Source: an uncultured Clostridia bacterium
GTDB taxonomy: Bacteria; Bacillota; Clostridia; Christensenellales; JAWKQI01
Length of the DNA: 32,000 bases
Direction of reading: 5' to 3'
Assembly (NCBI GenBank): GCA_964453645.1
Contig: CAYVRJ010000011.1
Location: 20,294 to 52,293 of the forward strand
Positions 11,278 through 24,940 of the stretch are shown one piece after another; position 1 is the first letter of the stretch; each line of letters starts with the position of its first letter. The position numbers and the translations under genes were made by a program. The notes below the pieces were generated by a model. That model made no database searches. It was not told where the DNA came from and saw only the letters and a list, made by a program, of their open reading frames with translations.

Positions 11278-12903
11278 TTATTCGTTCTTCATTTTAAACT
11301 CTGCGAGATGCTGGTAAATCGCTTTCGCTGTGTTGAGTGTTAAAATTTTGTCTTTCAGTTCAGCAGCATCTATTGTATTGATACAGCGAATGGCCTTTTT
11401 CATTTGCAGTAACTTGGAAGGGGTGACGCTGAATTTGCGTATACCCGCACCAATCAAGAAGGGTAACACCAAAGCATCGGAGGCAGCTTCTCCACACACG
11501 CTCACGTCTTTTCCGTTTTTATTGGCAGCTTGCGTAATGGAAACAATGAGCCGGAGTACTGAGGGCTGATAGATGGAATACAACTCTGCTAAGTCGCCGT
11601 TGCCCCTGTCCGCAGCCATGGTGTATTGAATGAGATCGTTGGTGCCAATGGACAAAAAATCCACAATCTTGCACAAATCATCCGCCATCACCGCAGCAGC
11701 AGGGGTTTCCACCATAACACCCAATGAGAAACTTGCCCCTGTGCGCTTCATCATCTCCCGAACTCTCTCAATTTCCTCCACAGTGCTCACCATGGGCACC
11801 ATGACTTTGAGGTTACCCTCAACCCCAGCAAATGCCCTTAGTTGGTTTTCCAACACCTCTGGGTTTTTCAGGCACAGCCGAACGCCCCGCACTCCCAAAT
11901 ACGGGTTTTCCTCCCGGCTCTGGGGCAGATATGGGATGACTTTGTCCGCTCCCGCATCCAACGTTCGAATGGTCACTTCCCGATCGCCAAAGATTTGGGT
12001 CAATTTCGAATAAATATTTCTTTGTTCCTCCACTCCGGGTAAATCTTTTCTGTCTAAAAAAATAAACTCCGAGCGGAACAACCCCACCCCCAAGCTCTCG
12101 CAACGGGCTTCCTCGCCGATCTCCTGCAAGCTTCCCAAGTTGCACAAAAGTTTTATATCCACCCCATCGGCAGTTTTGGGGGCTACTCCCCTGTATTTTT
12201 CCAAAAGAGACAGTTCTGCTTCATCGTTTCTCTTTTGTTCTTCCAAGGTTTTTAAGTCGGTTTTGTTTAAGTCATAGAACACTTGCCCAGTCTTTCCGTT
12301 TACAACAACGGTCTCTCCCTCCGGAATATCCCCCATGCCCAACACGCCAATGACACAGGGTATATTGAGGGAACGGGCTAATATACAGGCGTGGGAGGTT
12401 TCCCCTCCCCCCTCCATGGCTAGCCCTTGAATGGTCTCTTTGTTCTCCAGTATTTGAGATGGAAAGATTTCCTGGCCAATTAAAATGCCCTGGAGTTTCC
12501 TCTCCCCTCCGCCTTCCATAAGGTCAAACAGTTGGTTTTCAATATCTTCAATATCCGAAGCTCTGGCCGCAAAGTATTCGTCCTGCATATTTTTAAAGGC
12601 AGATGCCAACTCCCCTGCCACGCTGTGCAGGGCATACCCGGCGTTTACCCCCTCGGTTTTGATTTTTTGCACCACTGCATCACAAAACTCCGGGCTTTTT
12701 AACATAAACAGCTGTGCGGTGGCAATATCCGAACCCTTGGCCGAAAGTTCCCCCGAGAGTGTAACGGCAGCTTGGGTAAAGACGTTTACCTCCAACTCCA
12801 CGTGGCTGACCATGGATTTTTCAATGGTATAAGCCGTTGTGCAACGACTTGCAGTCCCAATGGCGATGCCGGGGTGCACCCCTTTGCCGGATAGTACTTT
12901 CAT
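11278..12903 (-). CDS. ptsI: Phosphoenolpyruvate-protein phosphotransferase (PTS enzyme I), operon-specific paralog
   Basis: AMEGGGETSHACILARSLNIPCVIG (phospho-His domain), TIRTLDAGADK, SIGTNDLIQYTMAADR, VSVCGEAASD. Tracked start is 12915, but ATG at 12903 has GGAG 8 nt upstream. Confidence 0.93.
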   Translation of the reverse strand: MKVLSGKGVHPGIAIGTASRCTTAYTIEKSMVSHVELEVNVFTQAAVTLSGELSAKGSDIATAQLFMLKSPEFCDAVVQKIKTEGVNAGYALHSVAGELASAFKNMQDEYFAARASDIEDIENQLFDLMEGGGERKLQGILIGQEIFPSQILENKETIQGLAMEGGGETSHACILARSLNIPCVIGVLGMGDIPEGETVVVNGKTGQVFYDLNKTDLKTLEEQKRNDEAELSLLEKYRGVAPKTADGVDIKLLCNLGSLQEIGEEARCESLGVGLFRSEFIFLDRKDLPGVEEQRNIYSKLTQIFGDREVTIRTLDAGADKVIPYLPQSREENPYLGVRGVRLCLKNPEVLENQLRAFAGVEGNLKVMVPMVSTVEEIERVREMMKRTGASFSLGVMVETPAAAVMADDLCKIVDFLSIGTNDLIQYTMAADRGNGDLAELYSIYQPSVLRLIVSITQAANKNGKDVSVCGEAASDALVLPFLIGAGIRKFSVTPSKLLQMKKAIRCINTIDAAELKDKILTLNTAKAIYQHLAEFKMKNE

Positions 12904-12962
12904 GTAACACTCCATTCTGTCGTTTCATTTATGATATAAATAATCATTAAAGAATCTTTCAT
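12900..12962 (-). CDS. 20-aa leader ORF overlapping the enzyme I start (ATGA)
   Basis: GGAGCTTTAC ATG ... encodes MKDSLMIIYIINETTEWSVT*, with the TGA overlapping ATG of enzyme I. Created by the 59-bp duplication. Confidence 0.4.
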   Translation of the reverse strand: MKDSLMIIYIINETTEWSVT

Positions 12963-13018
12963 GTAAAGCTCCATTCTGTCGCTTCATTTATGATATAAAT
13001 AGTCATTAATGGGTCTTT
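12901..13018. repeat. Two tandem copies of a 59-bp unit between HPr and enzyme I genes
   Basis: 12901-12959 catgtaacactccattctgtcgtttcatttatgatataaataatcattaaagaatcttt versus 12960-13018 catgtaaagctccattctgtcgcttcatttatgatataaatagtcattaatgggtcttt; 7 mismatches in 59. Confidence 0.95.
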
Positions 13019-13278
13019 CACAAAAAAATACCCTGAAGGGCTGCGGTAAGCTCTTTTGCTGCCTGTTCCTCGTCACTTCCTTCGATGTTTATTAAAACAG
13101 TGCCGTTTCCCTTGATGCCCAGCATCATAATGGAAATGGCAGATTTTGCGTTGCCCGTCTTTTCCCCTGCAACAATAGACATCTCCGAACTGTATTTGCT
13201 CAGCAGCTCCACAAGGTTTGCCGCCGGTCGGGCGTGCAGCCCCGATGGATCTTGAATGTTAAATTCGATTGTTTTCAT
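13018..13278 (-). CDS. HPr family phosphocarrier protein
   Basis: 86 aa. MKTIEFNIQDPSGLHARPAANLVELLSKY...GNAKSAISIMMLGIKGNGTVLINIEGSDEEQAAKEL; active-site His in GLHARPA. Confidence 0.95.
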   Translation of the reverse strand: MKTIEFNIQDPSGLHARPAANLVELLSKYSSEMSIVAGEKTGNAKSAISIMMLGIKGNGTVLINIEGSDEEQAAKELTAALQGIFL

Positions 13279-13289
13279 AATTCACCTCT

Positions 13290-23540: not shown

Positions 23541-23903
23541 TTAATTTCCCAAAATAAGCACGTAGAGTAGGATAAAGACTGCTTCATCACTGACTCCCTG
23601 TGTGCTGACGTTATACCCCTCGTACACTTTTTTGACGATGGTTTCAATATCCTTGCGCTTTTGGCCGTGGACTTCAATTTCGTTTAAAACTTGGGGGGTA
23701 GGTTTGCTGCACTCACCTTTTAATATGCGGTTGCTGGCCAACAAAATATGGTTGATCATCGAACCCGCGTTACTCTCGGTTAGTTCCATGTTGAGATATG
23801 TGCCCAGGCCGTGTAGAATCTTCATGGTTATGTCCACACTTTGTTGTGTCACCAAACCCGCTTCTAGTAACAGATTGATCCTGTTTTGAATCCCTTCGTC
23901 CAT
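23541..23903 (-). CDS. Stand-alone PRD-domain protein, YhfY-like
   Basis: 120 aa. IQNRINLLLEAGLVTQQSVDITMKILHGLGTYLNMELTESNAGSMINHILLASNRILKGE, a PTS regulation domain. Position next to yhfZ matches yhfY. Confidence 0.75.
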   Translation of the reverse strand: MDEGIQNRINLLLEAGLVTQQSVDITMKILHGLGTYLNMELTESNAGSMINHILLASNRILKGECSKPTPQVLNEIEVHGQKRKDIETIVKKVYEGYNVSTQGVSDEAVFILLYVLILGN

Positions 23904-23918
23904 GTTTTACACCCTCCG

Positions 23919-24839
23919 TTAATATTTGGGCAGCATCTTATCTTCAATAATCTGCCGCTGAATCTCTACTACACGACCTACGTCGATCACTTCGTTTAAG
24001 ATATAGTGCTGATGGAGTTTTTCCTTTAAGCACACGATCACCGCTTCGGTGTCCATTTTCAACATGTCGCTGGGCAAGTTAAGTTCGATGCACTTTAATT
24101 GGGAAAAGCGCTCCTGCGCCTCATCGCCGTTCCAAACGGCCACGTCCACCTCACCCAAATCCAATTTCTTGATCAACTGGTTGTAGGGGCATTTGATAAA
24201 CTCCGCCTGTGCGTCCTTGAGCCACTGCTGGGTCATAAACATTTGGTCGATGGAGTTTGGATCCACCGCCACCCGTATGCCGTCGAAGGGTTCACCCGAG
24301 AAACCGTCTCGCAAAATGATGGCATGGCCGCCAACATAGGAACCCGATCCAAAGCCCATTGCAATCTCCAACCCCTCGTCCCGCTTCATGGCCTCCACAG
24401 CCGCCAAGTGGGAGCAAACCGCAAAATCGTATCTGCCCGCCAGCACGCCGCTAATTCTCGCATCCGATCCCCGCTGATAGGCTAAGTTAAACTCGATATC
24501 CGCACTTTCAAATTCGGTATAGAGGGCTGTTGCCAGCCCCTCGTACCGCTTGGAATAGGGAAGGGGCATTGTGCCAAAAATCGAGGAAAATCCCGCAATG
24601 TTAAACAGCTTTTTCTTGTGAATGTCCGTGATGAAGGTGCCCGTATGCCCTGTGGCTTTTAGGGCAACGCCTCCGTTTTCCTTTAAAAAAGCCAGTGCGT
24701 TTTGAACCGTTCCCCTGCCCACGCCAATGTCCTTGGCAAAGTCCTCGACCCGGGGAATCTTGTCGCCTATCTTCATACTCAAAAACATTCCGGCAATTTG
24801 CTTGACTGCAATGCCGTTGTTTGTTATTAGCTTGCTCAT
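23919..24839 (-). CDS. yhfZ: YhfZ family transcriptional regulator (GntR-type HTH plus solute-binding-like domain)
   Basis: 306 aa. IAGMFLSMKIGDKIPRVEDFAKDIGVGRGTVQNALAFLKENGGVALKATGHTGTFI...FNIAGFSSIFGTMPLPYSKRYEGLATAL. Confidence 0.83.
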   Translation of the reverse strand: MSKLITNNGIAVKQIAGMFLSMKIGDKIPRVEDFAKDIGVGRGTVQNALAFLKENGGVALKATGHTGTFITDIHKKKLFNIAGFSSIFGTMPLPYSKRYEGLATALYTEFESADIEFNLAYQRGSDARISGVLAGRYDFAVCSHLAAVEAMKRDEGLEIAMGFGSGSYVGGHAIILRDGFSGEPFDGIRVAVDPNSIDQMFMTQQWLKDAQAEFIKCPYNQLIKKLDLGEVDVAVWNGDEAQERFSQLKCIELNLPSDMLKMDTEAVIVCLKEKLHQHYILNEVIDVGRVVEIQRQIIEDKMLPKY

Positions 24840-24889
24840 ACCGCACCTAAGTTCTTATATATATTTATTTTATCTTTGGAGGTTTTAAC

Positions 24890-24940
24890 AATATACAGTA
24901 AACTGTATATTCATTATATCACGGCCATCGCTTTTGTCAA
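24890..24940 (-). promoter_or_regulatory. yhf operon promoter with perfect palindromic operator
   Basis: Minus strand TTGACA (24935-24940) - 16 nt - TATAAT (24913-24918), then a perfect 22-bp inverted repeat AATATACAGT-AA-ACTGTATATT (24890-24911). Confidence 0.88.

Follow-up and report, generated by a model that had tools for sequence, protein, structure and literature searches.

A hybrid yhf operon with HyuAB and NCS1 genes and its own HPr and enzyme I in an uncultured Clostridia bacterium

The yhfZYXW-php-yhfUTS cluster of Escherichia coli K-12 (b3376-b3383) is conserved yet unexplained in that organism, and yhf genes are widespread in gut and anaerobic Bacillota. Full-text literature searches returned no functional study of these genes, and their RefSeq and PDB labels are still putative or uncharacterised, examples being the titles of PDB entries 4j8l ('uncharacterized protein YhfS') and 4kbx ('uncharacterized protein YhfX'). 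A cluster of this kind was found in a stretch of 32,000 nucleotides, here called the window, from an uncultured Clostridia bacterium (contig CAYVRJ010000011.1, positions 20,294 to 52,293). According to the table of open reading frames (ORFs), the minus strand of the window carries from 24839 to 11278 an unbroken run of twelve co-directional ORFs, namely yhfZ, yhfY, a gene for an NCS1 permease, hyuB, hyuA, yhfU, yhfT, yhfS, yhfX, yhfW and the genes for the phosphotransferase system (PTS) proteins HPr and enzyme I (EI). An original prediction, made from the sequence of the window, had named these twelve genes and had stated that the yhf genes are without an assigned pathway, and both statements held.

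Seven of the eight genes of the E. coli cluster have orthologues in the window at 25-46% identity, belonging to the same Pfam and NCBIfam families and likewise headed by a YhfZ-type regulator. Unlike E. coli, the window has HyuAB and the NCS1 permease as well as its own HPr and EI, and it lacks php (yhfV), which in E. coli sits between yhfW and yhfU and for which no homologue was detected in the window by tblastn with E. coli and Bacillota Php queries. The order of the genes also differs, being Z-Y-[NCS1-HyuB-HyuA]-U-T-S-X-W in the window and Z-Y-X-W-php-U-T-S in E. coli, and the frl operon that neighbours the E. coli genes has no counterpart in the window. The operon had been described as a complete yhf set to which further genes were appended; with php absent it is not complete, and HyuAB occupies the place that Php and an amidase have elsewhere, amounting to a module swap. 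The window operon is a rare hybrid between a type of cluster with php and yhfY-yhfU-yhfT and a type with HyuAB, NCS1 and a kinase, with PTS general proteins of its own. As to function, the reading favoured here, with a probability of roughly 0.55, is that of one inducible catabolic operon, expressed from a single promoter, which would feed a cyclic amide into the yhf core.

For comparison with other bacteria, a scan of one genome per species gave 587 loci with YhfS relatives, of which the best 80 by similarity to the window YhfS were fetched with 10-kb flanks; extra contigs were added for the closest proteins, and the loci (numbered with the prefix L) were annotated by tblastn and ORF clustering. 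This gave a census of 74 complete, non-duplicate yhf clusters. YhfZ, YhfS, YhfX and YhfW form the core common to all versions. Php is present in 61 of the 74 and HyuAB in five, the two never occurring together, and eight clusters have neither. The NCS1 permease accompanies HyuAB in all five cases, and an amidase-signature enzyme is found in 47 clusters, 45 of them with Php and none with HyuAB. A second pair of alternatives is seen in YhfU with YhfT (69/74) and a kinase (4/74), again never in the same cluster, with one cluster having neither; YhfY is always found with YhfT (64/64 clusters). Fisher tests on the census gave values of 8e-5 and 4e-6, which ignore phylogeny, come from a sample skewed to relatives of the window and are indicative only. 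Two modules are therefore interchangeable around the yhf core, one being the front end (Php with or without the amidase, or HyuAB with NCS1) and the other being YhfY/YhfU/YhfT or the kinase.

The Hyu-type clusters other than the window come from uncultured anaerobes and comprise L004 (from a Clostridiaceae metagenome-assembled genome (MAG); L086 is the same DNA), L084, L085, L095 and the partial L002. They have the NCS1-HyuB-HyuA block in common with the window and follow the order Z-NCS1-HyuB-HyuA-S-X-(kinase)-W, with the position of W slightly shuffled among L004, L084, L085 and L095 and the order seen in part in L002. All carry the kinase and all are without yhfY, yhfU, yhfT, HPr and EI, the reverse of the window, which alone among the clusters examined pairs NCS1 and HyuAB with Y/U/T, has no kinase and possesses its own HPr and EI. 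The kinase, of about 255 residues, keeps the full protein-kinase-like set of Lys73, Glu84, His157-x-Asp159, Asn164 and Asp177-Phe-Gly, and its profile matched many kinases in the PDB (E-values 4e-6 to 1e-3).

Compared with the Hyu-type loci, the window proteins are 72-75% identical for HyuB, 65-67% for HyuA, 58-60% for NCS1 (L004, L084, L085, L095) and 52-56% for YhfS, which is without a close relative, its best match besides itself being 56% identical. The best relatives of the window YhfZ are also in Hyu-type loci (45-48% identical), so that Z, S and X of the window are all nearest to this type. YhfU is nearest (56%) to a Bacillaceae-like php-type cluster, and YhfT is strongly divergent, with best matches of 29-33%, the nearest coming from a cluster with two U-T pairs (L090). 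This metagenomic locus (3231-9540) has the order Z-U-T-S-X-Y-U-T-php-W, and it is the first of its pairs to which the window YhfT is nearest. The original prediction had linked HyuAB and NCS1 to the yhf core and had proposed synteny as a check on whether they were chance neighbours peculiar to one strain. Five other lineages have the same NCS1-HyuB-HyuA block, placed between yhfZ and yhfS and kept at 52-75% protein identity, and HyuAB with NCS1 is a conserved alternative front end in diverged lineages rather than a chance neighbour.

The first gene of the operon, yhfZ (23919-24839, minus strand, as are all genes of the operon), codes for a GntR-type regulator (NF041241, 347 bits against a cutoff of 260; PF14503 (YhfZ_C), 233 bits; PF14502 (HTH_41)). 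It is followed by yhfY (23541-23903), coding for a stand-alone PRD-domain protein of 120 aa with a weak PRD match (17 bits, E-value 0.007), the CodB-like NCS1 permease gene (22200-23540; PF02133, 64 bits against a cutoff of 23.5, residues 33-411), hyuB (20384-22111; PF02538, 551 bits) for the hydrolase (Zn) subunit of a predicted ATP-dependent lactamase/hydantoinase, and hyuA (18360-20387) for its ATP-binding subunit, which has three Hydantoinase_A domains (PF05378, PF01968, PF19278). Next are yhfU (18010-18357; DUF2620, PF10941, 123 bits), coding for a small RpiB/LacAB-fold protein, and yhfT (16764-18008; PF10797, 175 bits), coding for a polytopic membrane protein presumed to be its transporter partner. 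The genes yhfS (15621-16742; PF22475, 105 bits, PF00266) and yhfX (14482-15630; PF21279, 93 bits, PF01168) encode pyridoxal 5′-phosphate (PLP) enzymes of fold-type I and of the alanine-racemase-like fold-type III, respectively, and yhfW (13290-14522; PRK12383, 417 bits against a cutoff of 254) a phosphopentomutase-like phosphomutase. The operon closes with the genes for an HPr-family phosphocarrier (13018-13278; TIGR01003, 90 bits against a cutoff of 47.9) and EI, the PEP (phosphoenolpyruvate)-protein phosphotransferase (11278-12915; TIGR01417, 447 bits against a cutoff of 341.7). BLASTP against the E. coli K-12 orthologues gave identities of 29% for YhfZ, 25% for YhfY, 36% for YhfU, 25% for YhfT, 46% for YhfS, 35% for YhfX and 39% for YhfW.

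From yhfZ to EI, the successive intergenic gaps are 15, 0, 88, -4, 2, 1, 21, -10, -41, 11 and 102 nt. The overlap of yhfX and yhfW is probably 11 nt rather than 41, with 14492 as the true start of yhfW, because homology to YhfW begins at an internal methionine. No convincing internal terminator was found within the cluster, terminator-like matches being no commoner than in shuffled sequence and none of them lying in an intergenic gap. Upstream of yhfZ, a sigma-70 promoter (24913-24940, minus strand) matches the consensus at 12 of 12 positions (TTGACA, 16 nt, TG-TATAAT) with an extended -10 element and is the top-scoring site in 17.7 kb. This match and the spacing of the genes support the earlier proposal of a single tightly packed unit starting from a promoter at 24.9 kb. 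The 5′ boundary of the unit is the intrinsic terminator of an upstream ABC-transporter operon (24951-24988, minus strand), with the stem AACCGAAT/ATTCGGTT followed by TTTTTATTTT; the folding energy of its hairpin, -13.9 kcal/mol (z -5.1), was equalled by none of 200 shuffles. The PF04392-type ABC transporter itself (window 25024-27803), which has its own promoter-like site (27907-27879), was considered as part of the operon and rejected, given that the terminator and the promoter stand between its genes and yhfZ and that its binding protein and permease have no counterparts beside other yhf clusters.

Directly past the -10 element is a perfect 20-bp palindrome (24891-24910), ATATACAGT-TT-ACTGTATAT (ATATACAGTTTACTGTATAT), of which this is the sole copy in the window. 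Among 76 non-duplicate loci, taken from widely differing bacteria, 38 have its core, TACA-N6-TGTA, in the 200 nt preceding yhfZ, compared with a mean of 0.5 and a maximum of 3 in 300 shuffles. The box has the longer form ATATACA-N6-TGTATAT, mostly lies 30-90 nt before the start codon (examples being L084, L085, L095, L045, L049 and L081) and is common to php-type and Hyu-type clusters across phyla. From this conservation we infer that the palindrome is the YhfZ operator, newly derived here, and YhfZ probably represses the operon by binding to it over the transcription start.

HyuAB relatives are ATP-dependent lactam hydrolases, and mutagenesis of caprolactamase CapAB has identified an essential ATP-site aspartate in the A subunit and a Zn site of D/H/D/H in the B subunit (PMC8453981). 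In the window, Hydantoinase_A (N, core, C) and Hydantoinase_B are encoded by two adjacent genes with a 4-nt overlap. Residues D38, H97, D100 and H122 of HyuB align with the essential Zn-site residues of CapB, and HyuA has the ATP motifs GIDVGGTFTD and DIGGTSTD, its positions being judged by motif. The nearest solved structure is N-methylhydantoinase 7hk5 (424 and 327 bits for HyuA and HyuB, respectively), followed by caprolactamase 6yra (377 and 228 bits), both well ahead of the acetone and acetophenone carboxylases. With 527 and 283 bits against cutoffs of 1000, the proteins fall outside orthology to the characterised members (caprolactamase, acetophenone carboxylase). Their catalytic residues and nearest structures make HyuAB a clear predicted member of the ATP-dependent lactamase/hydantoinase family. 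The NCS1 permease scores 200 bits against the cytosine-permease (CodB) equivalog, below its cutoff of 326. A scan of metagenome contigs with HyuB patterns, which were too permissive, returned one match of 31% identity and no yhf genes.

Among the core enzymes, YhfW was aligned with the phosphopentomutase of Bacillus cereus, in which every metal ligand has its counterpart and the nucleophile threonine is replaced by serine. YhfW should be an active phosphomutase. It had earlier been called a metalloenzyme of the AP superfamily, a description that stands in a narrower form, as the catalytic set is that of phosphopentomutase and not a generic one. A phosphomutase in turn implies a phosphorylated pathway intermediate. 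In locus L010 (11104-13035), from an Anaerovoracaceae MAG, YhfX-like and YhfW-like sequences are found in one ORF of 643 aa, which may be a fusion linking the two enzymes; the locus is a minimal Z-S-(X-W) cluster with neither U/T nor the kinase.

The alternation of Php and HyuAB suggests that the starting compound of the pathway has a ring or an amide that needs opening, and the alternation of the kinase with Y/U/T ties the latter to making the phosphorylated intermediate needed by YhfW. A cyclic amide is the probable substrate; once opened, it would be phosphorylated before the mutase and the PLP enzymes act on it. The NCS1 permease would import an N-heterocycle, such as a lactam or a hydantoin-like compound, and HyuAB would open the ring at the cost of ATP to give an amino or carbamoyl-amino acid bearing a hydroxyl group. 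In most other bacteria Php and the amidase could do a similar job without ATP; for hydantoin rings, both metal-dependent amidohydrolases and ATP-dependent HyuAB enzymes have precedent as ring openers. The product would be phosphorylated by the kinase in the Hyu-type relatives; in the window the phosphate would come from PEP and be relayed by EI and HPr to the YhfY/YhfU/YhfT module, in which the invariant cysteine of YhfU is the candidate phosphoryl carrier; alternatively, YhfU may isomerise the phosphorylated product. YhfW would then shift the phosphate, and the amine would be removed or rearranged by YhfX, acting as a racemase or in an aldolase-like way, and YhfS, acting as an aminotransferase or in a lyase-like way. 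The chemistry of the original prediction, in which ATP-dependent ring opening supplies the PLP enzymes, is plausible, and the weakest step of the mechanism is the role of YhfU and YhfT.

The small protein YhfY gave no match at the default threshold, only the weak PRD match given above. It keeps R8, H52, R59 and E107, which are invariant in the 64-member family, and has a tyrosine in place of the second conserved histidine. In YhfU, Cys51 is invariant (64/64) and Thr53 nearly so (63/64), both lying in the Gly-rich loop YY(L/I)GAC(H/N)TGGGG. An AlphaFold2 model of YhfU (predicted local distance difference test score (pLDDT) 96) was searched with Foldseek, and the top matches were all RpiB/LacAB proteins (template modelling (TM) scores 0.64-0.79, probability 1.0), with the Cys-x-Thr loop aligning with the loop of RpiB that holds the catalytic Cys66 and Thr68. 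At the level of sequence, hhalign of YhfU with RpiB gave a non-significant E-value of 0.014, aligned only at the Cys loop, and the YhfU profile matched 2ppw alone among PDB sequences (E-value 0.74). One of 34 YhfU sequences matched the RpiB family PF02502 (E-value 0.065), and 16 of 34 weakly matched Gly_rich_SFCGS (PF14272). An exhaustive HMMER search gave 171 representatives among 1.84 billion proteins and reached no RpiB or EIIB family, and the ten of the 171 that were scanned against Pfam were all DUF2620. Three single proteins have DUF2620 fused to another domain, the partner being a complete PTE domain in P0274, a PRD domain in P0313 and the YhfT N-terminus in P0334; these could be real fusions or artefacts of assembly or gene calling. 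An assignment of YhfU as the EIIB component of a PTS enzyme II (EII) was tried by hhalign and rejected, the E-values of 0.095 against UlaB and 0.23 against GatB being non-significant and confined to the Cys loop, and the fold search giving RpiB. The AlphaFold2 model of YhfT had a pLDDT of 81.

The HPr of the window possesses His15 (GLHARPA) and Ser46 and scores under every species-type HPr equivalog cutoff, and its EI has the active-site histidine (GGETSHA) and the CGE motif and scores 345 bits against the E. coli PtsI equivalog, the cutoff of which is 824. PTS genes recur in other yhf clusters, namely L081, with the order Z-HPr-EI-X-W-Y-U-S-T, and L009 and L033, with W-NagB-HPr. HPr and EI of the window are best read as a phosphoryl donor replacing the kinase or as a means of controlling the PRD protein. 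A more specific proposal is that YhfY, YhfU and YhfT form an unrecognised kind of PTS-coupled uptake and phosphorylation module, in which phosphate would pass from EI to HPr and on to the cysteine of YhfU, working with a YhfT of novel fold, and in which YhfY would report to YhfZ. This proposal is tentative, and we regard it as rather doubtful; it is favoured by the co-occurrence of the genes, the PRD partner and the EI and HPr encoded in the cluster.

Several observations weigh against the catabolic reading as a whole or against its PTS step. The eight clusters with neither Php nor HyuAB indicate that ring opening is not obligatory for the core, and the census is limited to the best 80 of 587 YhfS loci. 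There was no EIIB among the top 50 Foldseek matches of YhfU, the model of YhfT matched nothing in the PDB, and YhfT showed no similarity to the EIIC protein UlaA; YhfU and YhfT do not qualify as EIIB and EIIC on these results, the invariant cysteine being nonetheless present. Neither EIIA nor a standard EII transporter is encoded in the window operon, and a PTS-like role for YhfU and YhfT is drawn from co-occurrence alone. HPr and EI stand in the usual ptsHI order, separated by a 102-nt spacer with repeats and a weak promoter-like site; they could be the general PTS of the cell, and a kinase could be encoded elsewhere in the genome, of which 32 kb is visible here.

The alternative that makes most of these observations has HPr and EI as a general ptsHI pair downstream of the yhf genes, serving at most for catabolite control via YhfY, with YhfT as an ordinary secondary carrier, YhfU as an RpiB-type sugar-phosphate isomerase, a kinase encoded elsewhere and the rest of the pathway unchanged. 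It is a possible explanation, if on balance an unlikely one. It is favoured because of the RpiB fold of YhfU, with its aligned cysteine and threonine, the lack of EIIC similarity in YhfT and of any EIIA, and the canonical HPr-EI order; the retention of Ser46 in HPr, the promoter-like site and repeats before EI, and the low frequency of PTS genes in yhf clusters (4/74) also speak for it. Ser46 is the usual target of HprK. However, HPr begins 11 nt past yhfW and no terminator intervenes, L081 has HPr-EI inside its cluster, with yhfZ on one side and yhfX on the other, and the window HPr and EI both lie far under the species-type equivalog cutoffs. The alternation of the kinase with U+T, to which the one cluster that has neither is the exception, and the constant link of the PRD protein to YhfT also speak against it, and YhfU is about 35 residues shorter than RpiB.

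With regard to the catabolic reading, the neighbours of other yhf clusters give some indication of the substrate. A true NagB (glucosamine-6-phosphate deaminase; TIGR00502, 307 bits) adjoins 13 clusters (e.g., L009, L033, L077, L082 and L096), genes of the frl type (FrlD, FrlB, FrlR) flank three (L026, L053 and L001, the last being E. coli), one Clostridiales genome included, and the second-best family match of the E. coli Php is a phospho-furanose lactonase. Together these point to an amino-sugar-like or glycation-derived class of substrate rather than to one compound; of the specific candidates considered (muramic delta-lactam, creatinine-type rings, modified nucleosides and hydroimidazolone glycation products), none is claimed. 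The same neighbourhoods bear on the idea that the operon detoxifies or salvages a toxic cyclic amino-acid analogue, for instance an isoxazolidinone or a hydantoin-type antimetabolite, which would be inactivated by ring opening and PLP chemistry. The presence of an alanine-racemase-fold enzyme and an ATP-driven ring opener in one operon, the beta-lactamase-family hydrolases flanking 11 related clusters and the Imm5-like immunity-type gene after EI would all suit it. We consider it improbable, since NagB is linked to 13 clusters and fructosamine (frl-type) catabolic genes to three, an importer of its own and a substrate-type repressor acting at an operator are what is expected of nutrient catabolism, and a phosphomutase has no obvious role in detoxification.

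In locus L084, a DDE transposase and a phage-type integrase (11440-14337) come directly after the Hyu-type yhf cluster, and in the window the G+C content of the cluster is 0.49-0.53 compared with 0.39-0.43 in the left flank, which together hint at mobility. That HyuAB and NCS1 are an unrelated module inserted by chance into the yhf operon of one strain could draw on both features and is nevertheless very improbable, given the recurrence of the same three genes in the same order in the yhfZ-yhfS interval of five other lineages at 52-75% protein identity, their absence from every cluster with php, and the single promoter/operator pair and overlapping or near-abutting junctions of the window.

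Two spacers within the operon have features of their own. The 88-nt NCS1-hyuB spacer contains a hairpin (22136-22176, minus strand; -23.2 kcal/mol, z -4.4), and hairpins are found in NCS1-hyuB spacers of about 90 nt in three lineages, these being the window, L084 (2698-2790) and L085 (6080-6176), with z-scores from -4.0 to -4.9. Their sequences are unrelated, and in the window no U-run follows; the hairpin may be an element of mRNA stability or processing that sets the ratio of transporter to enzyme. In the 102-nt HPr-EI spacer (12916-13017, minus strand) a 35-nt sequence, TTAATGAYTATTTATATCATAAATGAARCGACAGA, is directly repeated, with copies at 12975-13009 and 12916-12950, and each copy carries the palindrome ATTTAT-ATC-ATAAAT (two matches, with zero expected by chance). 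The repeats may serve as paired operators or as a point at which EI is controlled from within the operon; the weak promoter-like site of this spacer is at 12967-12940. No Rfam family was matched anywhere in the 32-kb window.

Beyond the operon, a putative immunity gene of the Imm5-like type (10725-11252, minus strand) lies 25 nt past EI with its own ribosome-binding site and no terminator in between, and no toxin gene was seen beside it. Further along, window positions 4178-9329 hold another transport and catabolic unit, with an ABC transporter of the sugar type, a GntR/FCD regulator and a PLP enzyme of the Cys/Met family. A gene for a MecA_N-type penicillin-binding protein is also present in the window flank; in this analysis the label Gram-positive is based on that protein and on the relatives of the cluster.

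The window and its relatives amount to a natural swap experiment on yhf function, which becomes testable through the exchange of modules, the predicted YhfZ box and the fold assigned to YhfU. If the PTS-coupled role of YhfY, YhfU and YhfT is true, the window, in which EI and HPr are encoded and the kinase is absent, would be a natural minimal system for such a module, and the SFCGS/DUF4310/DUF4311 clusters would fall in the same new class. An amino-sugar or glycation-derived substrate, if true, would be relevant to gut microbial nutrition.

Among described systems, N-methylhydantoinase, caprolactamase CapAB and 5-oxoprolinase have the same two-subunit domains as the window HyuAB and agree with it in the ATP motifs of the A subunit and the Zn-site residues of the B subunit. 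However, the creatinine, caprolactam and glutathione-cycle pathways to which they belong differ from it in genomic context, which in the window is the yhf core. In hyu operons with the NCS1 permease Mhp1, the NCS1 gene adjoins that of the hydantoin-ring-opening enzyme, as it does in the window. These operons differ in having an ATP-independent hydantoinase of the amidohydrolase type, a carbamoylase and a hydantoin racemase, with no yhf core, phosphomutase or PTS proteins. The RpiB/LacAB isomerases resemble YhfU in fold and in the Cys-x-Thr-Gly loop after strand 3, whereas YhfU is about 35 residues shorter and its gene always adjoins the membrane-protein gene yhfT. A cluster described in enterococci, SFCGS-DUF4312-DUF4311-DUF4310-amidohydrolase-DgaE-KDGP aldolase (PMC11934601), follows the same logic as yhf, with a small Gly-rich Cys protein related to YhfU, membrane proteins, an amidohydrolase and a PLP lyase; its membrane proteins are different, it has an aldolase instead of the YhfX/YhfW pair, and it is likewise uncharacterised. 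The closest counterpart is still the yhf cluster itself, known and uncharacterised, of which the window is a new architectural variant, matching it in all features except Php.

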